A DNA stretch of 63,304 nucleotides, the filler included, from Hausera hauseri (lineage: Eukaryota): the NCBI GenBank assembly GCA_046269625.1. It is 12 parts of 12 records of this genome, joined end to end, with 100 filler letters (N's around TTAATTAATTAA, not from the genome) between each part and the next. Parts side by side here need not be neighbours in the genome. Positions count along the whole stretch, not along the records: positions 9,207 to 16,820 come from JBJURY010004791.1; 11 more parts are not named here. One strand, given 5' to 3'. This document shows positions 5,950 to 63,304 of the stretch, piece after piece; within the stretch, counting starts at the first letter, position 1; every line of letters begins with the position of its first letter. The notes under the pieces are model-generated. The model had not been told where the DNA came from, ran no database searches, and was given only the letters and a program-made list of their open reading frames with translations. The translations under genes were made by a program, and so were the position numbers.

Positions 5950-7136
5950 GTTCTTTTGTTCCAAATTTTGAGTAACAGATGCAAATGATGTTGCTTGCAT
6001 TAAAATCGGGAGAGTAAAATGTACAACCGATGCAGCATTTCTGCGAATTATTACCAAATTTGTTATGGTAGTAGCAAATAGACGACCGCGCGGGCGAGAG
6101 CGACCATGGTTGTCGTTGATGAAATATATTAGGGAAAGCAGCCTTAGAAAAACTCCTCGAGGCAGCGTTAACTCATTTAATTTCTCGTTTATGTTATTAA
6201 TTGTCTTTTGCAAAATTTCGTTTTCTGTGCGTAATTGCGCAATTTGTTGCTGCAGCAATACATTTTGTTGGTGGTTTGTTGTTAATGCCGCAGAGACAGT
6301 TGGTGCTGTGTGAGTGTAGCACTTCATAGGCTTTGTCCGCCAGTTCGGCTAGCTTTTCCAGCGCCGTGGAGTCTTCGACCACAGTGAGAAAAGCTCTTAT
6401 TTGAAGGGGCAATGCATTTAAAAAGTAACGGCGAAGAAGTTCTGTACTATGTTCAGATGTTACGCCAAGTGTATTGAGGTAAGACAAAGATGTGCGCAAG
6501 AATTCAGAAGGCTTTTGTAGGTCAATGGCGTTGTCGTTGAAGAATCTTTGAATGATTGAGTCGATTGACGGCTCAGGGAGCTTAAGAACGGCATTATACA
6601 GTTGAGTATATGAGTCGGTGTGATGAAGGATGTCGATGATATGGGTAATTTTAGTTTTGATGGAAGCTGTAAATTAAAAGAGGCTGTTGACTTTGGATAA
6701 GGAGTCGACGACGTTTTGCAATTGGAGCCAGAATTGATGCAGTTTTAGCCAAGTTTGAATAGAGTTTTGGCTATCGAGGAAATATTCTGTGCAAGGTGAA
6801 TGAGTGAGGAGCGTGTTGCGTCGAAGTGTTTGGATCACTTTGTTTGGGTAGGTAAGTGATGGAGATCTGTGGTTTGTTCAGTTTGTCCGTGGTATCAATT
6901 GTGGGTGGTGAATCCATGCCACCACGGATACGGAAGTGAATGTGAAGGCAGACAGAAGTTGTAGAAGGTTGGAGGGGTCCAGCGAAAGGCACTACAGATC
7001 CATTGTGTGTGAGGTAGAAGTCAGAGAAGTGAAGAGAAGTGGAAATGATTTTATGGATGGCAACTGTGTTTCCATGTATTACTGTATGTGTGCTAATGTG
7101 TCTGTTGTTTAGAAAAAAAGGACAAGAAGAGGTCAT
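5950..7136 (-). pseudogene. Ubiquitin-like leader (6918-7136) fused to Gag, frameshifted
   Basis: A 73-aa leader ends LHIHFRIRGG and is followed by MDSPP. Downstream are capsid-like FLNALPLQIRAFL...LEKLAELADK and the CHCC knuckle. Confidence 0.8.
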
Positions 7137-9106: not shown

Positions 9107-9206
9107 NNNNNNNNNNNNNNNNNNNNNNNNNNNNNNNNNNNNNNNNNNNNTTAATTAATTAANNNNNNNNNNNNNNNNNNNNNNNNNNNNNNNNNNNNNN
9201 NNNNNN
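9107..9206. other. Artificial contig linker (N44-TTAATTAATTAA-N44); the same linker occurs 11 times
   Basis: An identical 100-nt spacer with stops in all six frames recurs at 16821, 22623, 26853, 31297, 35694, 39895, 45931, 50083, 54390 and 59209. Confidence 0.98.
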
Positions 9207-9691
9207 ACCCATTTTATGGGGTACATCAATTGTATTATGTCGTCGAGTTCCGTTATGTTAGCCCGTTCTTTGGCTGGTATGACTAGCTTTACTTGTAGTT
9301 TTATTGCTCCTTTTGTACGCTCATCATTTTTGTAGTACATCCGTATAGTAAAGGTATAAGTGTCTCCATAATTTACGACACAACATTGTTCTTGTGCTCC
9401 ATATAAAAAATCGCAATGAGTCATTATTCGTTTATTTGCGTTCCACAGAACTACTTTGTATTTTACTGATTTTCTCACGGTTCCGTCCGTCTTAAATAGC
9501 ACACAGCCTCGACTTAGGTCTATACTTTGAACTTTAAAACGATCCAAAGTGTTTAAATCATTTCTTTTTATTCTTATCAATTCATTCTTCATCCATTTGT
9601 TTAACTGTTGTAGAAATCCTCTTTGAGCATTGGCTTTCGAAATAAATGAAGCTATCAGTGATAGTGATAAGACTATCTGTAAATAAGACAT
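9207..9691 (-). CDS. Signal-peptide-bearing domain in frame after integrase (env position), truncated by contig end
   Basis: MSYLQIVLSLSLIASFISKANA hydrophobic leader, RIKR furin-like site (9563-9574), Cys-containing beta-rich region. Confidence 0.55.
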
Positions 9692-9749
9692 GGGTTTAGT
9701 AACTATAGATGAAGTTTTGGTTTTCTTACCTTCTGTTTTCGGGTTCGAT

Positions 9750-10959
9750 TTTGTATCCTTATTACGTAACTGATATCGTTTTTCTGGTCTTATTTCTGTC
9801 TTTAGCACTTGCTGTATTGACACGACTTCTTCCTTTCCGTTTTTACTAATATAAACAGTAGTGGGTGTTACTCTGATAACTTCGTACGGTCCTCTTCCGG
9901 TACACGTAAGTTTTAACGATGTGCCTTTCTTAGCTACGGGATAATGCACATAAACCCAATCTCCGCTTCTTAAGTCATGTGGTTTCGCCTTTTTGTCGTA
10001 TTGATTCTTAAATCCTACTTGATATTATAAAGATAATGTCTTCGCTACTTTCCAACACTTTTGTAGTCTAACTTGTAGAACTTCTACAAAATTTGCTTTT
10101 AGCTCTTCAATGTTTGCTTCATACGGAATCATTCCTAAGTCCGTAGGTAGTGCTGCTTCTCGTCCATACATCATAAAGAAAGGTGTAAAACCTGTCGCGG
10201 AATGCGGTGTTGTATTGATGGCGAATTGTGTGCCTTCTAGAAATTCATCCCAATCCTTCTGATCCTTTGCGACTACGATTGACAGTATTTGTATCACGGT
10301 AGCATTCCATTACACTGGGGATGGTAAGCTTTTGTAGATAGTCTCTCGATTTCGAATATTTTCGTAATTTTGTCGAACAGTTCGCTGGTGAAATTCCTTC
10401 CTCGATCATTTAATATTTGATCGGGCGGACCGTATCTGCAGATAATTTTTCTTAATACGGCTTCAGCTAATGTTTCTGCTTTCTGGTCGTATAACGCTAT
10501 TAATTCTACAAAGTGAGTTAAACGATTGACTTGTGTTAGTATATACTTGTTATTTTTGTGCGTCGTGGGCAGTGATCCTACGATATCCATTGACATGGCC
10601 TGCATTGGTCTGTCCGGTACAGCTATCGGTTTCAATTCTGCTATATAATTTCGCATATTCCTCTGCTTAGTTGCGTATACTTCGCAAGCGCTGACCCAAT
10701 TTTTCACATCAATATATATACTAGGCCAATAATATTTGTTTAACGCTCTCTCTAACGTTTTCTTCCAGGATATGTGTCCTGCTAAATGCGAATCGTGTTC
10801 GGCCATTAATACTTCGGTTCGTAGAATTTTGGGTATAACTACTAACTTTCTTCCTTTTCGTTCATAATACAAAACTTTTTCACTGTCCTTGTTCTCGGAG
10901 ACACAATACTTATGTCTATGTCGTTGTAAATGTTTCCTTAACTGGTGTCCTTTTGGCAT
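9750..10959 (-). pseudogene. Integrase, family B copy 1
   Basis: EHDSHLAGH, KYYWPSI..DVK.WVSAC, MDIVGSLP, AYHPQCNG, WDEFL...QFAINTTPHSATGFTPF. Confidence 0.92.
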
Positions 10960-10999
10960 TACGTCCGTTTTGACATACTCGATGATTTGTTAGATGACT

Positions 11000-12420
11000 C
11001 GATCCTTCTTCTGTTCATATGAAATCTTAATTGTTCCGTCTGATGCTAAATTTCGTTGTCTGTCGATTAATTCTTCAAGCTGATTTTTCCTCATTGTCAC
11101 TATTGCACTTGCCTTTGTCTTCAACCTGGATAATGCATCTGCATCCACGCTTTTTGCATCAGGTTTATATTGGAACTCCATATTGTATCTTGATATTTCT
11201 TCAATCCACCGATTTAGTCTACACGTACGGTTATTCGCTCGTCTCTTTGGGGTTGTAACTGTCTTATGATCGGTAACTATTATGATCCTCTGGCAGTATA
11301 CATATACGTTAAAATGTCTCAGTGCTTCTTTTACTGCGAGCGTTTCTAATTCTGTCACAGAATAATTTTTTTCTGCTTTCTTTAGGAAGCGTCCTCCATA
11401 AGCAGTTGGGTGTTCTAGTTCATCGTCTTCACGTTTCTGTGCCAATTCGTATCAGATACCGTCTTTACTTGCATCTGTTTTAATAATAAACGGTAAGTTA
11501 AAATCAGGATATCTCAGCACTGGTTCGCTAGTTAATATTATCTTCATTTCATCGAATGCCTTCTGCTCAACATCGGTTTATCTCCATTTTATCCCCTTTT
11601 TTAATAATCTGTATAATGGTGCGTTGATTTTTGAGTTATCTGGTACATAGGTAGCATAATATCCATATAAACCTAACCAATGTCTTAGTTCCTTTTGGTT
11701 CTGAGGTTCCATACAGTCTGAAATTTTATTCAGTAATGATTTGTCGGGCTTGGAACCTCCTTTGCAAACTATATGGCCAAAATAGGATACAGCATTTTGG
11801 GCCCATCTACATTTCTTCGGATTCAGCTTCAATTTGGCGTGTTCTAATCTCATAAGAGTATCTTCAATATCCTTCAAATGCTCTTTTTCGTCTTTTGATG
11901 CAATCATTACGTCGTCTAAGTACGCAAATGCATGTTCAAGTCCCATTAACATTTTATTCATCATTCTGGTAAATATGGCTGGTCCGGTGGTGATTCCGAA
12001 CGGCATAACGTTAAATTCATATACGCCATCGTGAGTTTTGAACGCTGTTTTAAAACAATCTTCGTCTTCAATTTCTACTTGCCAATATCGGGATTGTAAG
12101 TCCAGAGTAGTAAACCATTTTGCTCCTAAGAGTCTATCTAAAGCTTCCTTTACAGACGGTAGGGGAAAAGAATCCTTCATCATAAGAGTATTCAATGCTC
12201 TATAATCAATACAGAACCTATGTTTCGTTGTACCTTTCTTTTTGACCATAAGAATAGGTGAATACCATGATCTAAAACTTGGTCAAATTATATCGGCCTT
12301 TAACATACGCTCTACCTCCTTGGTTATTTCCGGTCTTAGGGAATGCGGCGGTGGATACCATTTTGGCATTTTCTGTTCCTCGAGATCCATTTCATCATTG
12401 GATCCGGGCTTTTTCTTAAG
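11000..12420 (-). pseudogene. RT + RNase H, family B copy 1
   Basis: RFCIDYRALN, LDLQSRYWQV, MPFGI, YLDDVMI, NYSVTELETLAV, DADALSR. Confidence 0.93.
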
Positions 12421-13041
12421 CGGTATTGTTAACTTTAATGCCTTTGCTCGGCCAATGTCTTCTTCGTCTTTAGCAATAATTGATTTATATCGACATAATA
12501 ATTCGTAAAACTGACAATAAGCTTCTGGTGAAAACTTCGTATCGACGTGTGGTGGAAATTCAGCGTACTTATACGGTTTCTCTTCAATCGTTATTGCCGC
12601 TACTTTATAAGTATGTCCTAGAGTAGTGTTAGTATATAACCTTACTGGAGTCTAAGCATTATTTACTATCCTTACGGGTATTCGACCGCATACTACTCGG
12701 ATTAATATATTGCTTAAGATTATATTCGGATTTAGCGTTTCTTTTGGTTCAAAATATACTGGTAAATCGTCGTTCTGACAGATTTGTGCAAATATCAATA
12801 ATTCCGTTCTAGGCGGAATGTTTTCATCGACTGGAATCCAGACTTCTCCAGATTCTCTTTCTTTATTAACCTTAGTTCCTTTTATCGGTCCGAGCTCGAT
12901 TAACTTCGAGGTATTCAGATCTATCGCGACGTTTGGTAGACGTCTTAATACATCACATCCTAAAACTACGTCGTCTGTTAAGTGTTCCATTATAGAAAAT
13001 TCATGGAGGAATGTTTCTCCCATTATTTTAAGATTAGGATT

Positions 13042-14370
13042 TCACTTGAATTTCGGTCTTGATTCTTGTCCGAAAGCTCCTGTACTTCCGGGATCGGTTG
13101 CGAGTGGTAGTCGTAATTGATTTCGCAACGTTTTTGGTATCGATCTGTCCTTTATGAATGATTTCTCTGATCCGGTATCTACTAATGCGTAAACTTCCCA
13201 ATCGTCAATACTAATTTTGGCGAAAGATCTACCTTCTTTTATCTTGGGTTGTTTAACGACGGATATCTTGTACCCATTTATACTAATTTCTGGTGCTTTA
13301 TTCTCAGCTACTTGTCTTAATTCCTCAATAGGATATAGTCCATTATTTGCACCGTTTTCGTCGTTTCGATCCGGCGTATTGATGAGCGGTTTTCGGTTGT
13401 TTTGATTATGAAATGATTGCATTTGTGGATTATCGCAAATTAATGATTTAGTTTCTATATTCCGCGAAATCCTCGGATAGTGTATTATCTTGTGATCATC
13501 TGCCGGCTGGCGGCATAATTCGGAGTTTTCCCTGGTTCGGTATATTTTCGGTAACACGCCGTACTGTTTTGTTCCTTCATAGGGATCTTCATAATTGAAA
13601 GGCTTTCGATAGATTTCCGAACTATAGGAGTTAATAGATCTCTTATCGCTGACTTCGTATTGCGGTACCGAAGGGGGTAGCATTGGTAATGGTGGCCTAA
13701 GCGCCTTCCGATTGCTTATCTTGGAGACCGCGTCTCCTCCCTTAGGCTCATCATCATCCGAATCGTTTTTTCGAAATTTTGTATTTCTTTGTCCTATGAA
13801 AAATATAGATTTTCTCTTTCGTTTTCGATTATAATAACCAACGTGTCGCTCCACGTCGCTTTTACATTTGTTTTCTTCGTAAGCCTTCAGAAATTTGCCA
13901 AACGGTGTTATGACCGCGGTCAAAATTTTGCATGAAATTCCGGTTACAGAAAATATTTCATAGCCATTTATGATAGACTGAATTATAGCCTTTACGAGTT
14001 GTACCAGGAAGTAGATGGCTAAAAATCCTGATGCAGCTTTTCCGAAAATTTAAAATCTTCCCCAGATTTTATATAGTATTTCTGTAGTGACTCTTTCATA
14101 ATGATTAGTGTTAGTAGGGATTCCCATTTTGCTGGACAGCGAGTGTCATCTATCACCGTCGACTTGGCTCTATTTAGCTCATGCGTACGCTGTCGAGGGA
14201 AGGCTAAAAATGTCTAAAAGCTTCAATCTCTTTAGGTCTGTAAATCCCTTTACTTGCAGTGTCGGCGAACCTGTTGTCGGGTATATCTTTTAATAAATTT
14301 GTTCCAGGTGTAGATATTATTCCTCAATTTTGCAGACTTACCCAATCTGTCTCACTTCTCTTAAACATAT
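13042..14370 (-). pseudogene. Glycoprotein C-terminal/TM region + linker + aspartic protease in one frame
   Basis: From 14040, KAASGFLAIYFLVQLVKAIIQSIINGYEIFSVTGISCKILTAVITPFGK reads without a stop into ALVDTGSEKSF. One TAA lies just upstream (IWGRF*IFG). Confidence 0.75.
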
Positions 14371-14699
14371 GAAAGATATCCATCGGTTGAATTTGGATGG
14401 GCGTCTTCGGATTTTGGTTGTATAAATCTTCCAAATAAACATTCCATCCTGAATCATCTGCAACTTCTGGAAGTCCACAATCTAACAATGCCATAAGCGC
14501 GCTTCGTGCATTTTCACGGATTACGTTTAGTCTTGGCTGTATTTATTTCATCAAGTTAGTTTGAAACTTTACTTCGTATCCACATGCATGTTGTATGGTT
14601 TTTAGTGTCGGTCCTAATTCCTCTGTAGGAAATAACCCTTTTCTTTCAGAATCCGTTAATTCGGTCGTCACATCCGTTAACCATCTTTGTACGAATTCT

Positions 14700-16790
14700 C
14701 TTTTATTCGTTAACTCTGATTGTGTGATCTTATATTTGCTCTTATAAGCCTCCAGTTTTTTTTGCCTAATTCATCTAGCTTCGTAGCTATTTGCTTTGTA
14801 CGAATTCGCAATTCTTCTATATCTTTAACTTGAGTTGTCAATTGTCGCGTTTTATCGTCATCTATTTCTGCCATTGCCGACAGTAGTAATATCATTTCGC
14901 GCATTTCTTTTAGAGTCTCCGAATCTGGGTCTATTGCTTCAATCAGTCTCTTTACGAATCTAGCTTCGTCTGGTGTGAGGCGATGGTCTTTGGCTATTTT
15001 TATTAGCTCAGCGTGACAGTTCTGGTCGGTATCTGATGCCCACTCAAAAGGACGATGTAGGTATTTTAGTACTTCTTCTAACGCTTTTCGATGATTTGGA
15101 CAAATATCCAACGTCGATAAATCACACATGGATATTTCATCTATAGGCCTTATTATCAAATGTCGTAAACCTTCTAGGTGGATACCCTTTAGTTTCATCG
15201 ATAAGGAGAGATCTTCTCTTGTTTCGCCGATAATTTCATTTCTTCGATCACGGTATATAATTTTTCTGTACGTTTCATTTCCTGGTCTTTGTTCATAAAT
15301 CTTATTCTCAATAACTCGTTAAATTCAACTCGAAGGTTTGCCTCTATTTTGTAAACATCAACTTTACGAAGTATTTCCTTTAGCTGTTGTTTTAATATTG
15401 GTTCACGTTCTAAATACTTTCTTAAACGATATTTCGTTAGACCCACCAATTTGTCTAATAGTTCAAACCATACTTTGAGCTAATTATCTATCATTGGTTT
15501 CGCGTTTATTACATTTTCTAATCGTTCCTAGGCGTCGTACAATTTATCATCTGAACCCTTAATATAGTTCATTACTCCTTTAACGTAGTTAACTTCCTTC
15601 TTATATTCGTCCATTTCTAAAATGCATTTTTTCGTTATGCTTTGTACTACTTGTTTCTCCGCATACGATATTTTATTCCAATATCTGTAAATTTCGGAGC
15701 GCCTTTTGTCTTGCGAGGCTATGCGAATTCCTATTTCCGCATATTCTTTAGGCGCGTTGTACGCGATCTTACATATTTCCATTACGGAAGGAATGTCTAC
15801 AGGTTCTATGCTTAGTATTAAAAATTCGTTTTCATCCAATTCGTTTATAGGTTTATTTTTGAGATGATAGATTACTGCAATCTCTATTTTTACCATTAAC
15901 TTCTCCAAATTCCTTTTTGTTTGCTTCTGTTCTGGATCCGTTTCTAGTGTCTTTAGTAATCCTTGGGCAGTCGCCACTTTATTCTTAATTTCTATCTCCT
16001 GATTATTCCATGTGTCGGTGAAGTCGATTCCGCTTTTTATCCATGAATCTAGTTTTGTCTTCCATTTGTCAATTGACTTCTCCATAATTTCATACATTTA
16101 CTCTTGTTCTTTTTCCTTGTTAACGTCTTTCTCAAGGTATTGTTTGAATTCTTTATACACTCTTTCAGCAAATTTCTGTTCTTTTCGTGACACATTTACT
16201 TGAGTTTTTATACGTCTTAATTCTTCCAAATTGTGACGTATCGTCTCTGTATCTGTTGGCGCCATTTTAATCTCTTTTAATTTATCTGAATTTTTCCAGA
16301 ACTTTCTGATTCTCCACACTTTTCCGTCTAATCTTTTAATTCGTTCCGTGCCATCAGTTTCACCTTCGCTATCGGGTAATAGACATATCGTATTTATCTC
16401 GCTGTTCACGTCTCCAAGAGATACACTTGTACTTTGAACATCCGAAACGTCAGTAAGCTGCACATCTGGAGTGTCTAAGTACGGAGTGTCCTCTATGTCT
16501 ACATCTCAAACTTGAGTTTTCTCTGCATTGTCTCTTTTTAATGGCAATCTTGATCGACCCTTTTGCTTCGTTTTAATGTAATGGACTACGACCTCTATTT
16601 TTTGTTATTTTAAGGACTAATAGCACTATATATTCACTCTCAATTTCGTCAGCCACATCTTGACGTCCTTCTATCAGGGTTTCAGATTCAACGTCCAAGT
16701 TTACATTGGACGATGTCGTTGCTACGTCGACTTTGGTTACTTCTTTTGTCTCCGCAGGCTTTTCAAGCACATTCTTCTTGCGAAACATTT
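14700..16790 (-). pseudogene. Large charged/helical ORF of unknown function upstream of the glycoprotein (broken into several ORFs)
   Basis: Consecutive same-strand K/E-rich ORFs (16573-16788, 16098-16463, 15528-16097, 15195-15449, 14710-15198). No zinc knuckle recognised. Confidence 0.55.
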
Positions 16791-16920
16791 TACTATTGTT
16801 TGGCGCTATTAAGTACTCATNNNNNNNNNNNNNNNNNNNNNNNNNNNNNNNNNNNNNNNNNNNNTTAATTAATTAANNNNNNNNNNNNNNNNNNNNNNNN
16901 NNNNNNNNNNNNNNNNNNNN

Positions 16921-17120
16921 GCATATGTTGTTGCTGGGCGATTGCCACGTAGTCAGAAGATAGTTCTGACGGACGACCTTGTTGATATATGCAAACCTGG
17001 TGACGAAATTGATGTTACTGGCATTTTGTGTTTGCAATACGATTCGTCCACAAATATCAAACATGGATTTCCTGCGTTCGATATTTATATCCTCGTCAAT
17101 AACCTCATAAAAACTGTCGA
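16921..17120 (+). pseudogene. MCM2: MCM2 fragment (OB-fold region)
   Basis: GRLPRSQKIVLTDDLVDICKPGDEIDVTGI...YD.S.NIKHGFPAF...ILVNN matches MCM2 GRLPRS..ILL.DLVDSCKPGDEIELTGIY...YDGSLN..NGFPVF. Confidence 0.85.
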
Positions 17121-17756: not shown

Positions 17757-20700
17757 CTGGGGAAACTCGGGCACCCCGTATTTTCGTGCCCGCCCTGCCG
17801 GGGCGGGAACCCCGACCGCCAACTCTGCGCCGGTCGGTCGGGGGCACCTTCGATATCGGCCCTAAGTCACGCTTCCAGGTGCACCACTACTTCCCCATTT
17901 CCCTTTTCTTTTATAATAACACCTACATATATACGGCCCACATAAAACACCTATACATTTCCACTCTTCAGACCCGCATCTCTTCCCTTGGGTCTTCTGA
18001 CTTCTTTCTTACTCATCACGACGCTATCATTTATCATAACGAAATTTTTTCTTTTCCCAATCGAACTTGCTTCAACATACATCTGCGTATCCGTGGTGGA
18101 ATGAATTCCCCACCATCTATCGACACCACGGATACAACTACCACAAAAAACCAATACCCATCCTTTATTACTGTAAACCTAGCCCACCACTCTCTTTAAT
18201 CGATGCAAATCTCCATAAAAAATCTACCAACACTCCTCACTGCACTGAATACTTCATCGATAACGAAAAGTCCAGTAAGACGTGGCTTCATTTCCACCAA
18301 CTCTGTTTACAGTCTAATGGCATCACAGAATCCTTATCTAAGGCCCACAGCTTACTCTATCTTCTCCCAAGCTCAATAAAAGCATTAATACATAACTTGT
18401 TAGAGGTCTTTCAGAACCCTGATCCATATACCCAACTCTTCGATGCTGTCTTAAAACAGACCGAACCCTCCATTGACTCCATAATGCAGCGTTTCTTTAA
18501 CGAAAAATCCACTTGGCACGCAAAAATCCAGTGACTTCTTACGTACTTCATTAGAATACTTGCGTACTCTTGGCGTCACTAGGGAACATAACCCGGATTT
18601 TCTACGCCATTATTTTATGAACGCCATACCTAACCAAATCCGGGCCCTTCTTACCGTGGTGGGAGACTCCACGCCGCTTGAAAAATTGGCCGAATTGGCC
18701 GACAGAACATACGATGTCCTTCACATAAATTCACAACCAGTAGTTTCAGCAGCAGTTGCTACTAACGACACACAAACACTTAACACACCAATACAACATC
18801 AGCTAAATCAGGTACGTGCTGAAAATATTGCACTGCAGGCAACTATCAACAACATAAATAATAAACTAAATGAATTGTCTTTGTCCCGACGATGGGGTTT
18901 TGCTGATGACCGTACCCGTTCTGCGTCACGAAACCGCTCACCATCGCTTGCTCGTGCGTCGATCTGCTATTATCACCGCAGATTTGACACTAATGCCCAG
19001 AAGTGCTGCATAGGATGCACTTTTTATAATCAGAAGTTTTCCTCGGACACCGTTATCTGCATCTAATATGCAAGGTTCAAAAATCAAGCTCGTAGATGTC
19101 TTCCAGGCTGCACTTTCAAATCCAACACGAATAACGGACGTACTGCCTTTCCTTCTAATAGTCGTCCTAATTCTCCTTTTCAAAAGGCTAATTTCGCCAC
19201 TAGAGGCCACGGCAAACTCTGACAAAGGCACGCCTTCACATTCTGAACGCCGACACGTCTTCTTCGCTGTTTTCACCTTAAAGGCTGCAATCACTGCTCC
19301 TACTACGCAATCTGTTGACTTGCTTATTGACACAGGTGCAGATATTTCTCTATTACCGCAAACCTTTACTGTTCAAAACTCTCCATTCAAACTTCAGCCC
19401 TTACACACTGCTTCAGGCCAACCGCTGCACATCTCTGGAATGGTTAAATTATCTTTTACTCTTTAAATTTTCCAACACCTTTCCGTTGGACGTTCACAGT
19501 CGCTAACGTCCAGTCGGCAATTCTAGGATCTGACTTTCATTCACATTATAATCTACTGGTTGACTGCAGCCACCGATGTCTCAGGAACAGCACCGCTGGC
19601 CGCATTTCTGAGCATGTACATAGCATTTCGACTACCGCGCAGTCGACCGGAAAGCGGAGGTCAATATTAAAAATTCTATGAATAATTCAATTTTTATAAC
19701 GATAATTCTATTCGTAAATTTTTAAATAACAATACTGACATTCGATCGAAGTTCAATGTCGACAATTGTGGTACTGCTACCAACGTTCACTCATTCGACT
19801 AAAATACTTCAGCCAACACCATTTTCAACTCAACCATTTTGCACCAAATTCCACTTGCCTGCACATCATCTAACAACTCATAAATTGCATCTGCTACTAC
19901 TCAAGCCGTTTCACCACTTTCACCGAATCTCTCACAGCTACCTACAACTTTTCAACAGTTCATCAACACATCTTGCCCACGCGTACTTAAAAAGACCGTA
20001 CTTTTACCCCCGCAAACAGCACCTTACACCACATAGTCCCACAACACCAACGTCTAATACGCCAAAAAGTACGGCCTCTGTCACCTCGCCGTAGACATAC
20101 CGCAGAAGCCGAATTTCTTGAGCTCGAACGTTCCAGCATTGTACGCCGTTCCAAATCTCCCTAGTCATCACCGTTACACGTTGTGCAAAAAAAGGATAGT
20201 ACTTTTAGACCGTGCGATGACTACCGACAGCTTAACAACTTGACCATCATGGACGCATATCCTTTACCACTCATCAAGAATATTTTGCATCGCCTTAATT
20301 CAACCACCATATATTCAACCATTGATCTAACTAAAGCATACCATCAGATACCGGTAGCACCCGAAGACATTAAAAAAACCGCAGTAACTACTCCTTTTGG
20401 CCTCTACGAATACCTATTCATGCCATTCGGTTTGCGGAATGCCGCACAAACTTTTCAGCGGCACATTGATTCCATTCTTTCCGATTTCTCGTTTGCACAC
20501 CCTTATATCGACGAAATTTTAGTCGTTTCATCTTCGGCCAAACAACACGAAGAACACATTCGAGCAATATTTCAACGTCTCCACCACCATAATCTACAAA
20601 TCAACCTTGATAAATGCCAATTTTTCAAAAAACGCATTAACTTTTTAAGCCACGTTATCAAACCAAACGGCCATTCCCCACAATCAGACCGAGTCGAAGC

Positions 20701-22622: not shown

Positions 22623-23179
22623 NNNNNNNNNNNNNNNNNNNNNNNNNNNNNNNNNNNNNNNNNNNNTTAATTAATTAANNNNNNNNNNNNNNNNNNNNNN
22701 NNNNNNNNNNNNNNNNNNNNNNCCGATTAAAATTGAACAGAAAACCAGATAGCAAAAATACCATATATAATAGTCATGTCGATAATATTTTAATATGAAA
22801 CTATTGATTGTTATGGAATTCACTCACGTTCTCCTTAATGATTTTCTTCAAATGCTGGTTACGTTTTGTTGAACAGGGTGTTTGAAAAAGCATGATATTT
22901 ACAAGAACTTACTGAATAGTAATGCATGAATCTATGCTAACTTTAATTTGTAATTTACAGTATATTAATTAATCTTTTAAATAATTATATTTCATTAATT
23001 TGGTTTCCGATTATTATTTTTCCATTCATTAATTTCTTTATAATAGTTTGTGGTTTTTTGTTTTGAACAATCGTTTAAAGGAACTTTACTTCTGTATGGA
23101 TTTGGCATTTCATACCATGACTGATAGCAGTATTTACACCATTGAAATAACCAGTCTTGGCATCATGCTGGTGACATGA

Positions 23180-35793: not shown

Positions 35794-38700
35794 TAGTGGG
35801 TACCATTTAGGCATTTTTTGCTCCTACAAATCGATTTCGTCATTGGAACCAGGTTTCTTTTTTAATGGAATGGTTAATCTTACGGGTTTTGCTCTACCTA
35901 CATCTTCCTCGTTTTGGGCGATAATTGACTTATATTTGCATAATAATTCGTAAAATTGACAATATGCTTCTGCTGAAAATTTTGCCTTAACATGAGATGG
36001 AAACTCGTCATATTTGTAGGGTTTTTCTTCGATTGTTATTGCCGATACTTTATAAGTATGACCCAATGTAGTATTGGCATACAACTTTACGGGAGTTGGC
36101 GCGTTATTAACCAATCTGACTGGTACTCTTCCCGTCGTTACTCTTGTCAAAATGTTACTGAGTATAATATTTGGGTTAACGTCTCCTTGTGGCTCGAAGT
36201 ATACTGGTTGATCATCCTCCTCGCGTATTTGAGCATAAATTAGAATTTCGGTTCTGGGCGAAATATTTTCGTCGACGGGAATCCATACTTCTCCTAGTTT
36301 TCTCTCTTTCATTGCCTTAATACCTTTCACTGGTTTGAGTTCTAGTACTTTCCCCGTATGTAAATTTATTGCGATATTGGGTAATTGTTTTAGTATGTAA
36401 CAACCTAACACTACATCATCGGTTAGTTGGTCCATTACGGCGAACTCGTGTCGAAGAATTTGGCCCATTAATTGGACTAAGGGCCTCCATTTAAATTTCG
36501 GTTTGGATTCTTGCCCGAAGACTCTGATAATAATGATGGCTGTAGTTGTTTCTGGAGTGTTGGCGGTATTGATTTCTCTGATCCGGTGTCGATTAAGGCA
36601 TAGACTTCCCAATCTTCAATGGTAACTTTAGTGAAGGGTCGCCCTACCATAACTGTTCCATAACAACTTGACACGTCCTTTGCTCGTTTAATTGAAGAAA
36701 TCTTATGTCCGTTTACCGTTATTTCTGGCGATGAAATAATATTTTCGGTCAACTGTTTCAGTTCTTCATTCGGGTATAAGTCATTAATCGCTATGCTATT
36801 CTCACTGTTTCTAATTAATGGTTCTTGTGCTATTGGATTTTGGGGCGTTTTCATTTCTTGTATTTCCCAGACTGTTCATCTTGTCTCTATATTACGAGCT
36901 ATTCTCGGTGAGTACAATAACCTATGGTCATTTTCCGCTTGTCATTGATTATTGATCTGCATTTTCTTTAATACTCCGTATTGTTTTGTTCCTTCGTAAG
37001 GGTCCTCATAGTTAAAAGGTTTCCGATGGAATTTCAATTTGCATGACACCATAGATGTTCTATCGCAGTCTTCATATATTGGAGCTGTTGATGGAATGAT
37101 GGGCCAGGGTGCCTTAATTACTGAATACATCTTGTGTCTGTTTTGTCTGAGGATCGCTTCTCCTCCCTTAGGCTCGTTATTATCGAAGTAACTCTTTGTG
37201 TTGTTAATTTCTTAGCTTTGCGCTTTGACAGAAATGTGGGTCTTTCTTGTCGTTTATAATTATGGTTGCCGATATGGCGTTCAACGTCATTTTTATATCG
37301 GTTTTCTTCGTATGCTTTAAGCATTTTGCCGAACGTTGAGATAATTGCGGTTAAGATTTTGCAGGAAAATCTTGTTAGCGTAAATATTTCGTACCCGTTT
37401 ATAACCGCTTGGATTACCGCTTTTACTAGTTGTACCAAGAAATAGATTGCTAAAAATCCAGATTCAGCTTGTCCAAAGATTAAAAATCTTTATAGAGTAT
37501 TTCTGTGGTTACCCGTTGGTAATGGGTTGCACCAAACAAGGATTCCCATTTAGCCTGGTAGCGGGTATCATCTACTACTGATGCCATAACTCGGTTTAAT
37601 TCGTGTGTACGTTGCCGTGGAAAAGCGAGAAATTGTCGAAAAGCTTCAATCTCTCTGGGCCTGTAAATACCCTTTTCAGACGTGTCCTAAAATTTGTCAT
37701 CAGTAATTCCTTTCGCTAAATTAGTTCTAGTTAGTCTTTTGAGGATGATAGTGACACCTCCATTCGGTAAGCTAACCCAATTCGTTTCGCTACGCCTAAA
37801 CATTGGTTCATCCAAACTTGCCTTACAATCCTTTAATATTGTAGGTTGTGTTGCGTTGTCCAGCAGCAGTCTAGTGAGGGGCGTGGCTAAGCGCGAAGTG
37901 TTCTGATAGATCACAGGAAGTTCTTGTATACACCGGTTTTCTTCGACATTAATTGATACGTCTCTTTTCTCGCACTCGTAGGTCAGTAGGACCGCGCCAG
38001 TAACTAGGCCGAAGATTTCTTCTCTCATGGGAATGATCGGTGAAGCTAACTCAGGGTTCGCATAAATAAGAGCTAATTTTGTCCTCATAATTTCCGTATC
38101 TAATTTGCAGTCATTAGTTATCATTTTTTGATATAGTTCGGCTATCCCGATTTGTCCTTTAAAATAAAAATAATCGTCTCGAGTTTTGAGATAATCTTCG
38201 ATTCTAATATCTTGCGTTTCCAAGTTATATGTCTTCGCGTTTATCTCCGTTTTTGCGACGAAGAACGCTTCGTTGTTAGTGGTAAACATTACTACTTCTC
38301 AACGGGAAATCATTTCCTTTTTATGAATTTCAATCCGTGCTGATCAGAGATTAATATCGTAGGTGTGTGATGCTCTGATACGCCTTCGCGTACCCTTGAA
38401 CTGATATCAGATCTATCTACGTATCGTTTCCCGGTAGTTTCATTAAATTTTAATTCCTTAATGTTAATAAAGTTACAACCTTTTCCAGTGGGCGGTTCCC
38501 ATATGACGACTGAACTTCTAAAGGCACAGGTTCCATCCTGTATATGACACTTTTGGTTCTCAGTATATAGCTTAGTAACGCTATGAAACATCACCTTCTG
38601 TACTCGCATTTCCGATTCGTAAAAGTCTACTACTACTACGCTTGCTTCTAATCCCTTTCCGGTGTCATATTCCGCTCCACTACAGTGCCCGTTGTGCATA

Positions 38701-39894
38701 TCTAACCTTCCGAATACTATCTTGTATGCTCTGATTATCTTTCCGGGCTGCATTTCTAATTCCATACTATCCCATTTTAGTCTCCCTGTTTCTTTGGCCT
38801 GTCTGCAATGTTGCCTTTCTAAATTCATTGGAATTGAAGAGGTCGTTGGTTTGATTATAGAGAAGTGTCCGTGCATTAGTCCACAGTGGAAGATGCTACG
38901 AGATCGTCTCAGCATACATTCCATGCCATCCAAAAATATCAACTCTTGTTGTTGGTATAGGAAATAGCACTTCTTTTTTCCAATTTATGTGGTCTGGCAT
39001 CCTCACGTGCTTCTAAGTCCATTAGTGAGTATTTTTGTACAAGCTGAAATCTATCGCAATCGTAGACAGTGACAGCACCCATCTGTTTTATTAACATCCT
39101 TATAGTGAGCAAACTGATTAACCAGTTAGATTCATTCTTCCGGTAGTTATTATCCGTTGTCGTCAAGTTCAGTATGATGTCTCCGAATCCATTACTACTG
39201 TTCCTCTTATCGTCTTCCTTGTCAAACAATTTTGGCCAATTCAATTCATACGGGAGCTTTCTAGATGCTTTCCGCGCCAAACTTGTAGCTCGATTTAGTT
39301 CATTTTCTCGATTTGGATTTGTCTTAATTGCCAAGTACAATAATACTTAGCTCTTCTGTCGTATTTTCCACCATAATTTTCTCAACTACTGCGTCGTCAG
39401 TTAGGCTGCTTTTTGACAGCTTGAAGTGCGAATTTATCATTGTGCTAGCTGCGTTAAATATCGCCTTTTCTTTATCATCTAATGTATCTCCGCGAAGACT
39501 TGAATAATTTACAATACGTATTAAATTCTTCATTAACTCGTTTAACTCTTCATGGTCGGCGCTAAAGGTACGAATCGACATCTGTTTCAGCTCTCTAATT
39601 AACTCTCCGTTATAGTTAACTTCTTCTCGGGCCTTCCTAGGTCTACCAACTGGGTGTTTTGGCTTTTGGACATTGGTTATCATTCCAGTTATTGGCACTA
39701 GATTCTTGTCATATTGTTCCTTGTCTTCATCTGTATGTAAATACTCGAAATACATCGCCTCATCTAGTACTCCCATGATTTGCCCTACGCATTGTTCCGT
39801 TTTAGCCTTCCGCGTGGCTTCTTTTGTCTGTTCATTAGCTATTATTACTACTATTCGATTTGTTTCGTCGGGAATAATTCCAACATCTACTAGT
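35794..39894 (-). mobile_element. Gypsy family B copy 2: unknown ORF - full-length glycoprotein - linker - protease - start of RT
   Basis: VYALIDTGSEKS near 36590. The post-protease domain is closely similar to copy 1, and the glycoprotein lies upstream. Confidence 0.88.
37300..39124 (-). pseudogene. Chuvirus-like (class III, gB-related) envelope glycoprotein
   Basis: Signal-like WLISLLTIRMLIKQMGA then VYDC..YSL.D; ECMLRRSR.IFHCG; GHCSGAEY; C...DGTC; VIWEP; C.....RTKLAL..ANP; G.V.G.V...YECE......C..ELPV.Y......P.TR.L; TM FG...SGFLAIYF...VK..I..VINGY. This Cys and TM pattern is that of chuvirus G and G-like endogenous elements. Confidence 0.75.
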
Positions 39895-46030: not shown

Positions 46031-49000
46031 GCACTGAACAAAAGAAAAGCTTAGAAATAGCAATGCAGTCACCAACTACCTTAGAAAAGAGAAAAGTAAT
46101 AAATGGAGTACGAGTCAAATTAAGCCAAGTAATGATAACTTATTTAAGATTCTGGAAACGAAATCATTATGTAAAAGATTACTTCAAAATAAAGTCATAA
46201 AAGAATCAGAGCATCTCGCAGGAAGAGTTAACACCCTTATTAATAAGTTGAAAGCTCTAGGTATAAAAAGTACCGAAGAAAATGAAAAGAAATTAACAAA
46301 GATTCTCAATGAAAGTAACGATTTGTACCAATGTCTAATTGATGATATTGATCTCGATGAGGAACTACACCAACTATTAGAAAGATTAATTTCAATTTGT
46401 AGATATCACATAGAAGAAGGAATAACTGATGATGGGTACCCCCTATGATATCCCATTTAACTATTGATGAACTTACTGACGGAGTAAAACCGACTAAAGA
46501 ATTTGCCAAATGGACAGAAGGAATAAAATCATCGTCCGATTTCAATAAGTTTAATGAAAAGTAAGAAAAGCAGAAGATTTTTAACCTGATTTCTCAAAAG
46601 TGATTGATAAAGAATACATTGCAGCTGAAGAAAGAAGTTTGAGAAAACGTATGGAAAAATTAAAGCCACCTAGATACCATGAATTTTTAACCAAAGAAGA
46701 GAAAAGAAAACAAGAAAAACCAATAAAATATCCAGATATGATTGACAGCGACATGAGTGAAACTATTGAGAATATACCGCCGATACAAAAACGGAAAAAG
46801 CATGCTACAAAGAGAATAAGATTGTACAAACCACAAAAGGCCGGAAAAGAAATAATACGAATGCCAGTAAAGATGGTTCAAGACGCTCTTAAAGACACAA
46901 CTGAGTACGATACACAAGACAGTTTTGAAGAGAATATAAACCTTAATGATTTTCTTGAATATGACTTTGATACCATCCATCTAGATAAATTCAAAGACGA
47001 AGAGATAAATGAAAATGAAGGAATAAAATCAAAACCAACTCTAATTAAGAGAATGACCGCTCTACAAGAATTTTAAGAGGATTTAGATGACTTGCTAATA
47101 TCTTACCTTATTAGAGAGAATAATATTCCTGAAATCGAAGAAGCAGTAGAAGAATTAGCTAAAAAAGCAGCTGACAAATGGAGGTATAATGGTACGCCTC
47201 GAACCTTACTGAAATTGTTAGGAAAATACTATTTAAGTGAAAAGAAATTTATGAATCGGAAAATAACAGTGCGACCTTGGATTGACGACACCTTCTTCCC
47301 AAATCTAGAAATGAGTATTAATAGTCGAGTTGTTGATCTTGAACAAGCAATCAAATCTCAAGCACAGAAACGACTGAAACACCTTAGAATTATATACTAT
47401 GATAGAATTTTGGATCCAGAGGAACTTCTAATAAATGTAGGAATGCTTCCTGATACCATATGTAGTGTCGCAGTAAGACAAACAACAGAATTAACTCCAG
47501 AAGAAGCTAAACGGAAAATTATTAATGGCGAAAATATAACACAAGAAGAAACTATTATGGGAATAAAAGATAAACGAGGATATTTGAAACATCTTAATGA
47601 GACATTAATCGAAAATTTGAATCAACCAAATATTGACACTGATGATCAAGAAGTTGTACAGCCAATTGTAAAGAAAACTTTACTCGATCTAAATAGACGA
47701 AGTAAACGGAATAAAACTATAACGATAGCCAAGAATTTCGCTACCCAAATAATGGAATACGAAACACCAAAATTATACAAAGAGTATAAAGAGGTCAAAC
47801 AATTAGCAAGAGAATTATATTACATTGATATAGGCAAAGATCCAATAAATAATCGTTCTCCTAAATGGAAGAAACGAGTTAAAGAACAATTAAAATTCAT
47901 GAAGAATTACAAGAAAAATTCACAATGTAAAAATTTTACTGACGGTGGCATAATTCAACTCATTTTAGAAAAACCGTCACGTACAAATTTGGAGAAAGTG
48001 GTAATTCTGCTCATTTCCGAAACACCGAGTGAAAGCGAGTTGAAAGCAACAACTGGAAAAATGATCCAAGTTGGCAAATTGATTACACCACAATATGGTA
48101 AATAGAAAGATCTGCTTTTACAAAATGAAGAAGTAACTCAGTCTAAAGTAGGCCAAACTACTATAGGAAAAGCCATTTCTGAAATTACTCAGAATACCCC
48201 TCAAGAGGAAATGGTTCAAGTTGTCATGGAGAAAATGACACAACAAATTCAGAAAGATATACAAAAGACTGACGAAACGAAATCCAATGAATCATTCTTG
48301 CAATTTATTTTGTTTGTATTTATTCTATTTTCCAACTTTAGGAAATTAGGAACTGTAATGGCATATCACTGTGACAAAATCCACGAGGGAAGTTATTATT
48401 CACTCATGGATTTACAATCATGCCCGGATGCACTTCCGAAAAAACTTGAAACCATATCACAAAATTTATATATCGATTACGACAAACTACACTCCACATA
48501 AAAGGATTAGATTGCTCATTGTGAGTATCTCGCAACATCACTTGCTGTGGTCATATACATCACGATTCTTTAATACAGCCAACTACAATGCCTATATATG
48601 TGTCGTGACCGTAAATGTGGACAACGAGTGTTCAGTAAAAATTATGAAAAATATTTTATATCGGAAAAAGAAATTGCACAGGCAGATAATTCGCCAGTTA
48701 ACAGAGCTCAATTAGTGAACATTGCTAACTATATCGCTAACAGAGATGATTTCTTATTTTATCTCACCCACAAAACGATAGAGGAAATATATTCAGAAAC
48801 AATACAAAATATCTGCAGAGCAAATTTCGAGACGTTGAGGAATCGATTGGCTATTTACGCTTCAAATCCAGAAATGATAACGATAACATTACCATTTAGT
48901 GAAGGAATCCTGGGCAGAGTCCTAGGAGAAGTTTTATTTACCTACAAATGTAAGAGATTGGACTTACCATTAGTTAGAGGTACCCCATGTTATTCAAAAG

Positions 49001-50082
49001 TACCGGTTAAGTACAAAGACAAAATTCGATATGTTCAGCCAATAACTATAGTATTGTTGGCGCCACATACAATACCAACGGAAATTCAAAACTGTACAGC
49101 ACTGAACAAACCATTTATCAAATACGATAATCAAGACTTATGGGTCAGACTACCTGATAGAGATAGAGTAAAGGAATAACCAAAAAATTAATGATGATTA
49201 ATCTCAGACATTCCATCGAAACGAATATGTTTACTGACGTATCAAAGTTAGCATTGTATAGCAAAAAAGTGATTGATTTATTTGTAAAATTTTTGGCATA
49301 TCCCAGACAACGAGAGCAGGTAGTAAGCAGAAGAATACATAGACTAATCGATGATTCTGCTTGAGAAGGAAAATGGGATCGATTGTGGATGCCTGATGCT
49401 TATGCAAAAATAGTTTCAATCTTATGGCACAAAATGTGGGGTGGATTTCTAAAATTTAGACAAGTAGCTTCCGGATTTCTGGCTATTTACCTTATTCTGC
49501 AAAAATTGAAAGTTTGTATCAATTCAGTATTAAACGCTTACAAAATCTACAATCTGACGGGATTATCTTTGAGCATAATTGGTGCACTATTTTCTCCTGT
49601 TGCAAATTCATTAAAGCTTCCCATGAAAAGCAATGGGGAGGTAAATTAAAAAAACATGTGGGTTATAAGAATGGAAATCCGATATTAGAAGATACCTCCT
49701 CAAGTTCAGAGCATGTTGATGACTCACCTGGACATTACTCAAAACCTAATATTTCTAAGAAAAAGAACCGGAAAATCCGAAAATTTCCCACAATAAAGAA
49801 AACAAGACTAAAGAACAATCGTTTAGTACCATGCGCTCCGTATGAAAATAAAATACGTTCGATTGACGAACAAACAATTGACAAACTACCAAAGTTATCT
49901 GACCTTAATGATCAATACATAAAGCTACATAGCATTCCGAAATATTCACAAGAAGAAATACTTCAATATATTATTACTCAAAGTATGGAAAAGAATAGAG
50001 TATCACTACCAATTTCTCCAAAATTAAAAACACTGCCACCTATACCTTATCATCAAGTAAAATTAAATAAACCAACCAACGA
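46031..50082 (+). mobile_element. Divergent family B-like element: long unknown ORF (with UBL-like domain) - internally deleted glycoprotein - basic/Pro-rich tail
   Basis: FLQFILFVFILF..LGTVMAYHC..YSLMDLQSCPD; CRANFETLRNRLAIYASNPE; GRVLGEVLFTYKC...CYSKVPVKY...QPIT; WGGFLKFRQVASGFLAIYLIL. All are homologous to the 37300-39124 glycoprotein. Confidence 0.75.
48290..49640 (+). pseudogene. Chuvirus-like glycoprotein, mid-ectodomain deleted
   Basis: Same motifs as at 37300-39124, but the sequence jumps from the CCGH region to the RDDF region near 48620. Confidence 0.72.
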
Positions 50083-59308: not shown

Positions 59309-62300
59309 ACCACAAAATGATAACGAATGACTGCAGATTAAATACTGAAGTCATGAGAACCAAACTGGCCTTAATTTATGCCAACACAGAATTGGCATCA
59401 CCAATTATACCGATAAAAGAGGGTGTTTTTGGAAGAGTTACCGGTGAAGTCCTATTAACTTACGAATGTGAAAAAGAGACGTGCCGATCAACGTAGAAGA
59501 AAAAAGATGCATGCAAGAATTACCGGTTATCTATGAGAATATGCCGAGACTAGCGATGCCACTCACCAGGGTATTACTGGCAAACTCGACCGAACCAACA
59601 ATATTGAAGAAATGCAAAAGGAGACTAGGTGAACTCATGTTCCAACGCAGTGCAACCGACTGAATAAGTCTATCTAATGGAGGCGTTGCTCTAGTCCCTA
59701 GTAAGTTAACCGGGACAAAATTAATTAAAAGATTATCAGAGGATAAGTTCAAGGACACGGCCAATAAATGAATTTATAAGCCAAAGGACATAAAAGCCTT
59801 TAAGCAAGTCTTAGCATTTCCGCGACAGAAAACGTATAAAATGAATCTGGCCATGTCAGTGGCCATGGACGACACCCGCTTCCAAGCGAAATTCGAATCG
59901 TTACTTGGTGCTAATCACTATTAAAGAGTAACTTTGGAAATACTATAAGATTTGGGGAAGGTTTCTAATTTTCAAACAAGCTGCATTTGGATTCCTAGCC
60001 ATCTACTTTTTCGTCCAGTTAATTAAAGCAGTAATCCAAGCCGTTATAAAGGGATATAAAATATTCACATTAACAGGATTTTCCTGCGAAATTTTAACTG
60101 CAGTTATCACCATTTGGAAAAATACTTAAGGCCTATGAAGAAAATCGATGGAAAAATGACGTAGAGCACCATGTCGGGTACTATAATCACAAAAGACGAG
60201 GAAAGCCATCCATTTTGTATAGACGTAATAATAAAAAAACCGTAACACGAAAGGATGGTTCAGATGATAACGAGCCTAAGGGAGGAGAAGCGAGTTCCAG
60301 GATAAAGATGCGCAATATGTACTCAGTGATTAACGCGCCAATGCCTATTATCCTACCAACCGCACCAATATATGAAGACTGCGACCAAAGGTCAGTCATG
60401 TCATATAAGTCGGACATCTACCGTAAGCCTATTGATTATGATCCGTATGAAAGAACAAAACAATATGGAGTATTACGGAAAATGAATATTAATAACCAAG
60501 GGCTAACAAAAGACGACCACGGGATATTATACTCAAAAAGGATACTTCAAAACATAGAATCAAAATCAGCTATCTGAGAGAACCCAAAGCTGCGTTCGAT
60601 CTCAGATCCACTACCCCAAGAACCACTCATCGACAGCCATGTCACTGAGATGTCAAATAACGATATACACCCAAAAGAAGAATTAAGACAATTAAAGCAA
60701 GATATCATTTCGTCGTCAGAGATAACAATAAATGGACACAGAGTCTCTACCACAAAACAATCAAAGACAGCGTTGAATTGCTTTGGAACAGTAGTAGAAG
60801 GCAGACTTTTCGCTAAAATATACATTGAAGACCGGGCAGTATGTGCCTTAATTTACAAAGGATCAGAAAAATCGTTTATAAAATACGAATCGATACCAAC
60901 CACACTACGGGAACAACTATGCCCATCATTATCATCAGACTTGGGGAGCATAAGAGCATGTGGGCAAATATCGAAGCCAAAATTTAAATGGACTCCTACG
61001 GTTTATTTGATGGGCCAAGCACTCCGACATGAATTTGCGATAATTGACCAGTTAACAGACGTTGTAGTACTGGGTTGTGATATACTGAAACAGATACCAG
61101 GCATGGCAATTTATGTGCAGAGCGGAAAATTAATTGAGCTCGAACCAGTAAGAGGGACAAAAGTAATAAAGGAAAGGAAATCGGGCGAAGTATGGATTCC
61201 GTTAGATGAAGACATTCCGCCCAGAAACGAAATGATAATTTTCGCACTGATTCGTCATGACGAAGATCTACCAGTATACTTCGAACCTCAAGAAAATATT
61301 GATCCAAACCTTATGTTTATCAATATTCTATGTAGAGTAGTGACGGGACGAATACTTATCAGGTTAGTGAACAATGCACCAATCCCCGTAAAATTGCACG
61401 ATAACACTACTTTAGGTTACACTTGCAGAGTATCGGCAGTAACAATAGAGGAAAAGCCATATAAGTGAGCTGAATTTCCGCCTCACGTCGAAACCAAATT
61501 CTCTCCTGAGGCGTAATGCAAGTTCTACAAATTACTATGTAAATACCGTTCAATAATCGCACAAAATGAGGACGACATAGGCAGATTAAAAGCCCTGAGG
61601 TTAACAATCCCATTGAGGAAGAAACTCAGCTCGAATGATGAAATCGATCTAGAAGAACAGAAAATACCCAAACGGTACCCACCTCCCCATTCACTGAGAC
61701 CAGAAATAACTAAACAGGTAGAGCGAATGTTAAAGGCCGATATAATTCGACCAAGCTACCGATTATGGTACTCACCTATACTTATGGTTAAATAAAAAGG
61801 AACTACAAAACATCGATTTTGTAAAGACTATCGGGCATTAAACACGCTGATGATAAAAGACTCGTTTCCTCTACCGTCAGTAAAGGAAGCTTTGGACAGA
61901 CTATCAGGAGCGAAATAATTTACCACTCTCGACTTACAATCGGAATACTGGCAAGTGGAAATAGAAGAAGAATATCGATATAAGATAGCGTTCAAAACAC
62001 ACGATGGCGTATACAAATTTGATGTTATGCCTTTCGGCATCACCATAGGACCAGCTATTTTTAATAGAATGATGAATAAAATGCTCCTGAGACTTGATCA
62101 TGCTTTTGCGTATTTGAACGATGTAATGATAGCATCACGAACAGAAGAAGAACACTTAAAGGACATTGAGGATACACTCATGCGACTAAAACAAGCAGGG
62201 TTGAAACTAAATCCAAAGAAATGTAAATGGGCACAAAACACAGTATCGTACCTCGGACACATAGCTGGAGAAGGAAAGTCAAAACCGGATAAATCCCTGC

Positions 62301-63304
62301 TAAATAAAATATCAGATTGTATGGAACCGAAGAATCAAAAAGAGTTAAGACATTGGTTAGGTCTATATGGATATTATGCCACTTATGCACCAGATAATTC
62401 GAAAATTAACGCACCACTATATCGCCTGTTCAAAAAGAGAACTAAGTGGAGATGGATGGAATTGGAACAAAAAGCATTCGACGAAATGAAGAAAATTTTG
62501 ACAAGCGAAACAATTTTAAGATACCCTGATTTTAACCTACCATTCATCATTAAAACAGATGCAAGTAAAAAAGGTATAGAATATGAATTAGCTCAAATAC
62601 GATAATATTATGAACTAGAACATCCAATAGCCTATGGAGGATGCTCGTTTAAGAAAGCAGGAAGGAATTAATCGGTTACCGAATTAGAAACCGTAGCCGT
62701 AAAGGAAGCACTACGACACTTTAATGTCTATCTCTATGGACAAAAGATTATAATAGTAACCGACCACAAAGCATTCACGACATTGAAAGGACGGGCTAAT
62801 AACCCAACATGTAGATTAAACCGTTGGATCAAAAAAATCTCACGATATAACATCGAATGCCAATACAAACCAGGTTATAAACACGTCGAAGCCGATGCAC
62901 TATCAAGGTTAAAGACAAAAACCAGTCGGATTACCACGGTGAAGAAAACGCAGGTCGAACAAATAATTGAACGTCAAAGGACTTTAACCCTGGATAAAAC
63001 GATCAGAATCACCGCGGAACAAGCTAAAGATAAGGTTATTTAGCAAATTGTTGAGTTCGCACAAAACGGCGACATGCCCAAAGGACGACAACTGGAGAAA
63101 CACCTGCATTAACACGGACATAAATGTTACGCATCGAACCTAGATAATATCCTATATTATGAACGAAAAGGGAGAAAACTAATAGTTGTTTGAAAAGGAT
63201 TATGATTCATATTTAGCCGGACATATGTCTTGGAAGAAGACCTTGAAAAGGATATTAAATAAATATTATTGGCCAAGCATTTATGTTGATGTAAAGAATT
63301 GGGA
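59309..63304 (+). mobile_element. Gypsy family B copy 3: glycoprotein C-terminal half - linker - PR - RT - RH - IN start; decayed
   Basis: NDCRLNTEVMRTKLALIYAN, RCMQELPVIYE, GFLAIYFFVQLIKAV; degenerate protease (ALIYKGSEKSF); RT 61800-62450 (YLND); TDASKKG; TDHKA; EADALSR. Confidence 0.9.

Follow-up and report, generated by a model that had tools for sequence, protein, structure and literature searches.

Does one element family of Hausera hauseri make its envelope glycoprotein and its Pol proteins as a single chain, and what would this mean for the way Pol enters a particle? The window, by which we mean the whole 63,304-nucleotide stretch of DNA analyzed here, is gapped eukaryotic sequence rich in transposons. 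Since its gaps (e.g., 9107-9206) consist of two 44-N runs around a 12-base stop-codon spacer, neighboring contigs are not necessarily adjacent. Four copies of the element were detected, A and B on the minus strand and C and D on the plus strand, all of them decayed; copy A spans about 16800-9200 (minus). We consider it very probable that they represent a family of Ty3/gypsy LTR retrotransposons in which a gB-type env follows a Gag-side region and precedes pol in a single frame, encoding a membrane-threaded precursor from which Pol would be freed by the element protease.

Table 1. Coordinates of element features in the window
Feature	Position	Strand	Basis or remark
Copy A, stop-free frame from glycoprotein anchor to protease	13045..14049	minus	335 codons; ORF + Pfam
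Copy A, predicted transmembrane helix of glycoprotein	13969..14025	minus	KD19 2.03; PF24664 547-604
Copy A, second, weaker hydrophobic segment, then basic cluster	13900..13956	minus	KD19 1.61; putative membrane-surface helix
Copy A, hydrophilic linker	13315..13869	minus	185 codons, purifying selection; PSVP
Copy A, retropepsin	12937..13230	minus	catalytic DTG at 13179; single stop within, at 13044
Copy A, spacer, RT, RNase H, integrase zinc finger and core	10294..12936	minus	anchor frame kept down to 10990
Copy A, ectodomain-end remnant, decayed	14050..14368	minus	signal and most of ectodomain gone
Copy A, upstream ORF remnants, helical/coiled-coil-like	14380..16820	minus	no family match; link to element assumed from position
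Copy A, integrase C-terminal region, signal-like stretch (Met 9691), FN3-like beta-sandwich, in frame	9209..10024	minus	cut by gap
Copy B, upstream ORF, NES and signal-like stretch (39136), ectodomain pieces, anchor, linker, protease	35796..39893	minus	
Copy C (more distant), upstream ORFs, NES and signal-like stretch (48286), ectodomain, anchor, tail	46038..50082	plus	
Copy D, ectodomain end, anchor, linker, protease, RT, RNase H	59309..63304 (window edge)	plus	

The frame from glycoprotein anchor to protease

The first-pass annotation had placed the transmembrane (TM) segment of a glycoprotein and the protease (PR) in one reading frame. This was confirmed for copy A: the ORF scan of the window returned a 335-aa ORF with zero stops (13042..14049, minus), which leads from the Pfam family PF24664 to RVP. 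Residues 6-23 of this ORF are ASGFLAIYFLVQLVKAII, and the TM segment reads without a stop into VDTGSEKSF, as had been noted, whose catalytic Asp is encoded by codon 291 (13179-13177). PF24664 covers residues 2-60 (E 2.4e-9), and the glycoprotein in copy A corresponds to the C-terminal part (PF24664 547-604) of a Monjiviricetes (chuvirus-like) fusion glycoprotein. RVP starts at residue 274 (E 0.0045, or 1.5e-4 if stops are read as X). The five other frames of this DNA contain 16-26 stops each, none of 20000 shuffles was stop-free, and the chance of 335 stop-free codons is about 1e-10. With stops read as X, the frame covers protease, spacer, RT, and RNase H in 1019 codons that contain five stops and no frameshift, and Pfam detected an integrase downstream of RNase H. 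All five stops are within Pol, indicating that decay hits Pol as well as the linker.

Upstream of the anchor, copy A is rearranged, and the glycoprotein match beyond the open frame is limited to 14368-14050. The ORFs farther upstream matched copies B and C in none of nine comparisons, and an Atlas search with the TM-PR protein of copy A gave no usable match. Contigs of one public run differed from copy A by eight single letters and no indels; this run is possibly the source sample and so is not independent. The same run gave three weak joints, each in one contig, with a short side of no more than 24 letters and non-splice ends; these were set aside.

Three copies span the region from TM to PR, and the frame is open in one of them (A). 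Copies B and D each carry one net frameshift plus one or two stops in this region: in B, the frameshift is near 37200 and the stops are near 36950 and at 36878; in D, the frameshift is near 60105 and the linker stop at 60575. These breaks are at differing sites, each absent from the other two copies. The nearest stops are 3 codons apart (B at A codon 202, D at A codon 205), and both frameshifts are less than 100 codons from the anchor. In-register stops at B 92 and D 176, 177, and 229 were left uncounted as alignment artefacts beside gaps, the ORFs being open there. Thus, no stop or frameshift between glycoprotein and protease is conserved among these three copies, in agreement with the annotated joint frame. 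In copy C, the ectodomain is internally deleted and the tail is cut by a gap before the protease. PF24664 was detected in copies A, B, and C with E values of 2e-9 to 7e-20.

The linker was analyzed for selection. In the anchor-protease frame, pN/pS of the 185 codons was 0.47, 0.42, and 0.47 in the three pairs of copies (bootstrap 95% 0.32-0.60), with selection over the whole length, while the two other frames gave 1.03-1.77. This purifying selection indicates that the linker is protein, in register with both of its neighbors. Furthermore, pS between the copies was 0.58-0.79, and we conclude that they are old separate lineages that diverged under selection rather than recent duplicates; the window copies are dead remnants of these lineages. 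The selection data show a working fusion in at least three of the family's lineages. The linker of copy D contains PTAP, which we take to resemble a late-domain motif; PSVP stands at this place in copy A, and P(S/T)AP is present in the tail of 1 of 11 relatives.

Natural relatives and the region upstream of the signal

A search with an ectodomain profile yielded 475 proteins at E 0.001, and the best 150 of the 475 were examined; the relatives' proteins are gene predictions whose calling method is not visible. Among the best 22 of 475, nine are fragments that end at or before the anchor and 13 pass it. In 11 of these 13, Pfam detected a protease in the same chain, 106-346 residues past the anchor; five of these 11 chains extend as far as RT and four as far as integrase. 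P0018 and P0025 end 37 and 79 residues past the anchor start region and contain no protease. No protease motif followed the anchor in the 36 anchor-bearing proteins among the lower 128 of the 150 examined matches. Since fusion was found in the best matches but not in the lower ones, it characterizes the clade closest to the window family. Of 29 mid-length matches that were scanned, 28 are plain glycoproteins or fragments, and one has RT-RNase H before the glycoprotein.

Other searches returned little: word-indexed protein searches for longer relatives gave 0/1630 and 0/1522 candidates, a Pol search gave 6/4170 (glycoprotein in 0/4 scanned; P0003 and P0004 were judged from their listed domains), and viral contigs gave one pattern match, with none confirmed. 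In an RT-RNase H tree with 17 rows, the window copies paired (100/100) on a long branch, and the deeper nodes do not place them. Tandem protease domains (two or more) past the anchor were observed in P0011, P0013, P0017, P0022, and P0159, the window copies having one; P0013 and P0159 have an extra protease domain after integrase. The database entry of P0010, which is a full Gag-Env-Pol protein, reads hypothetical protein and assigns it to a 9-kb contig of a Flavobacteriaceae metagenome-assembled genome, where it is probably eukaryotic contamination.

In copies B and C, the signal-like stretch had been described as in frame with upstream coding sequence and preceded by the tripeptide NES. NES is present in copy B at 39136 (minus) and in copy C at 48286 (plus), and 70 and 60 codons upstream of it are open. 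Farther upstream, the frame is broken: copy B changes frame about 70 codons before NES, and copy C has a stop 61 codons before it. Nevertheless, the upstream region is colinear between B and C over about 190 residues (1/2000 shuffles), which indicates that the region before the signal is coding. The last 70 residues before NES did not align between B and C (1040/2000 shuffles scored as high). Met codons are present 17-25 codons before NES in copy C; copy B has no Met among the 70 codons that precede its NES.

That NES is a conserved motif was rejected, as 0/12 relatives contain it; nothing speaks for it as a specific motif. N-x-S/T just before the internal signal is present in both window copies and in 7/12 relatives (6/11 without a near-duplicate), compared to an expectation of about 1.8, the interval having been picked after the fact. 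Perhaps it acts in helix capping.

Neither a Gag domain nor a CCHC motif was detected in the 250-810 codons upstream in the window copies by Pfam, CCHC, and similarity searches, and their Gag may be located beyond the gaps. Among the relatives, CCHC or Retrotrans_gag was found upstream of the internal signal in P0010, P0015, P0017, P0022, and P0026. Copy C contains a ubiquitin-like lead at 47260-47490 (plus; Pfam E 0.043; Atlas 0.85-0.88, below the trust level), for which no PDB sequence match was found. A structure model of the copy C upstream protein was discarded (pLDDT 38).

Topology, the proposed precursor, and rival readings

Topology was read from hydropathy (KD19). The first segment after the ectodomain scored 1.69-2.13 in all four window copies and at least 1.6 in all ten long-tailed relatives. 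The second segment scored 1.20-1.61 in the window, falling below 1.6 in three of the four copies, and reached at least 1.6 in one of ten fused relatives (P0022, 1.71) and in 4 of 36 stand-alone glycoproteins. It contains Lys and Pro, and in the window copies it is followed by basic residues. No further hydrophobic stretch was found between the second segment and the protease (maximum 0.88). Hydropathy therefore favors one anchor plus a surface helix as the simplest reading, with a predicted cytosolic protease, and to this extent agrees with the side of the membrane assumed in the first-pass annotation.

From this layout the following scheme can be proposed. Translation would start in the cytosol, and an internal signal sequence would send the ectodomain into the ER lumen. 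Signal peptidase would then cut this internal signal, freeing the Gag-side product from the rest, and the glycoprotein anchor would stop transfer, so that linker, PR, RT, RNase H (RH), and integrase (IN) would be made in the cytosol, joined to the glycoprotein tail. The element protease would release Pol from that tail, and Pol would be recruited to the assembly membrane via Env rather than by fusion to Gag. Packaging of Pol as part of a Gag-Pol fusion is the norm in retroelements. Since signal peptidase would cut Gag from Pol during synthesis, Pol would have to reach the particle another way, the simplest being the tail of the envelope protein; in this layout, Gag-Pol packaging of Pol would not be available unless a spliced RNA exists. 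For the membrane-threaded polyprotein as first annotated, the single Env-PR frame is upheld by the linker selection and the 11 of 13 anchor-passing relatives; the Gag end was seen only in relatives.

The frame could be continuous while most Env or Pol comes from spliced or subgenomic RNAs or from internal starts, with the full precursor a minor product or Gag-Pol made by splicing out env. We regard this as rather unlikely, but it can be compatible with the membrane-threaded precursor. It would avoid the equal amounts of Gag, Env, and Pol that a single chain implies and that retroelements usually avoid, and Met codons exist ahead of NES in copy C and where the post-integrase signal of copy A begins. 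However, copy B lacks such a Met, the region before the signal is colinear coding sequence in B and C, and the linker is under selection from end to end. It is improbable that a leaky stop or a programmed frameshift within the linker terminates Env instead, that Pol is made by read-through, and that copy A has lost the signal for it. The proximity of the stops of B and D, the position of both frameshifts close to the anchor, and the early ends of P0018 and P0025 are in line with such a site, but the stops and frameshifts affect differing codons, each intact in the other two copies, and 11 natural relatives are uninterrupted from anchor to protease.

A transmembrane hairpin formed by the two hydrophobic segments would make the protease lumenal, and the fusion would be no working precursor. 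Despite the scores of the second segment in copy A and P0022, this is very improbable: that segment is weak in three window copies and nine of the ten fused relatives, is similarly weak in stand-alone glycoproteins, and carries Lys and Pro ahead of a basic cluster. Moreover, RT and integrase need access to the cytosol and nucleus. It is hardly credible that decay, deletion, or misassembly opened the frame by accident in a single copy, even though the scaffold is fragmented by many gaps and the region before the anchor is rearranged in copy A. Three independent copies have a common order, spacing, and selection, relatives have the same layout, and the possibly nonindependent public run shows no indel along copy A. 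The membrane-threaded precursor thus remains our preferred reading.

Copy A continues past the integrase. No stop separates the integrase from the signal-like stretch, and the following domain has seven strands. Its single-sequence model has a mean pLDDT of 52 (core 60-73); compared to fibronectin type III (FN3) folds, the best Z was 8.7 (rmsd 2.4 over 83 residues), and Foldseek gave E 0.006, with none at 0.001. This modeled FN3 match is modest, and the fold is a common one. In all four long relatives examined, the same chain continues after integrase with a signal-like stretch, a region containing Cys, and, farther on, a hydrophobic stretch, which are clear in P0010, P0013, and P0159 and less clear in P0030. 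Sequence similarity between the copy A domain and those of the relatives was not significant (113-737/1000 shuffles).

Tentatively, and with rather less confidence than doubt, we propose that one chain crosses the ER membrane four times: Gag-side product, signal, gB-type fusogen, anchor, cytosolic PR-RT-RH-IN, second signal, FN3-like ectodomain, and second anchor. The Pol loop would be pinned at both ends, the FN3-like domain would be a captured attachment or receptor-mimic partner of the fusogen, and the retrotransposon would make a two-glycoprotein envelope in the manner of flaviviruses. A real post-integrase protein would tether Pol at each end and give the element a second surface protein. 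In herpesviruses, gB-type fusogens require partner proteins, and two envelope proteins, if real, bear on the targeting of such fusogens in retroelements. No report of an FN3 domain after integrase was found in the titles and abstract beginnings searched.

Known elements and other content of the window

The pol order of copy A (RVP, RVT_1, RT_RNaseH, RT_RNaseH_2, Integrase_H2C2, rve) is of the Ty3/gypsy (Metaviridae) type. No LTR pair was found among the window repeats, and every copy ends at a gap or at the window edge. In all three copies holding both, env is 5' of pol.

NERV, which Sacco et al. are said to have described in 2022, reportedly has a single uninterrupted gag-env-pro-pol ORF whose env derives from negative-strand RNA viruses, and is said to be confined to chromadorean nematodes and to have a monophyletic RT. 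Its flipped gene order is mentioned second-hand in the available text of PMC13524379. That text equates the PF24664 family with gB-type env and describes GAG-ENV-POL errantiviruses with gB-type env in Nematoda, Bryozoa, and Platyhelminthes, which are not monophyletic. Like the window family, they have a Ty3/gypsy pol, a chuvirus-like gB-type env 5' of it, and an ectodomain between signal and anchor or two membrane segments. As far as the available text goes, PMC13524379 gives the gene order and states no shared env-pol frame ('polyprotein', 'in-frame', and 'fused' occur 0 times), and it contains no discussion of tethering or of a second membrane protein. Supplement 1 of PMC13524379 gives copy numbers of 45 and 215 for two planarian elements. 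These errantiviruses have intact ORFs in multiple near-identical copies, whereas all four copies in the window are broken, and the most similar of them are 70-76% alike; intact copies may exist elsewhere in the genome. Furthermore, these errantiviruses carry GAG, while in the window copies Gag was not identified. The window element has the tested GAG-ENV-POL features except intactness.

Burro/GYPSM1, a giant gypsy element of planarians, encodes one polyprotein in which env is placed between gag and pol without a change of frame (PMC6431247). Env is in frame with PR both there and in copy A, and another shared trait is an env that matches mononegavirus glycoproteins. Burro is over 30 kb in length with long LTRs and has ubiquitin/SUMO-like and then Bcl-2 domains before env. 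The window copies are cut by gaps; the ubiquitin-like lead of copy C is located where Burro has its SUMO-like domain, and Bcl-2, MATH, BIR, and ankyrin gave no Pfam match in the window copies. Both have a PR-RT spacer, which contains a dUTPase-like domain in Burro (PMC6431247) and in the window comprises about 215 conserved codons with no Pfam match. A post-integrase signal and FN3-like domain are unmentioned for Burro in that part of PMC6431247. Among the relatives, two proteins recall Burro: a 4844-residue cluster member that adds repeated protease domains and ankyrin repeats to the same layout, and P0018, with a weak Bcl-2 match before env.

The mosquito element Anakin has the same glycoprotein family as the window element. 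Its backbone is BEL/Pao, while the window pol strongly matches gypsy-type RNase H and integrase models; Pfam families that we take to mark Pao were absent from it at E 0.1. The available parts of PMC12440569 and PMC10309623 provide background only. In summary, the env-pol layout is already published, as the polyprotein of Burro (PMC6431247) and as a gene order in three phyla (PMC13524379). Literature on processing, tethering, topology, or stoichiometry of such polyproteins was not found among titles and abstract beginnings.

Other sequences in the window were also recorded. On a contig of its own, 24615-26653 (minus) contains two overlapping ORFs: one of 367 aa, in which Pfam detected a C3HC4 RING finger (E 3.9e-6), and one of 325 aa that is DEDD exonuclease-like by eye and had no Pfam or PDB match. 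Possibly they are accessory genes that belong to a large retroelement. A second gypsy family, lacking env, is represented by two copies at 2100-7000 (minus) and 18000-22670 (plus), which are 71-78% alike and have a strong GC skew. Host-like fragments comprise a PH domain (1127-1648, minus), an MCM OB fragment (16921-17030, plus), a NAT10 helicase (56453-57139, minus), and a DPP IV N-terminal fragment (57504-58055, minus), several of which look degraded. A 4-kb satellite array at 31400-35570 has periods of 63, 150, 277, and 340 nt. Finally, there are two pogo/Tigger-type transposases, at 40775-42555 (minus) and 51406-53352 (minus); the latter is an unbroken 648-codon ORF among decayed elements and is therefore probably recent.
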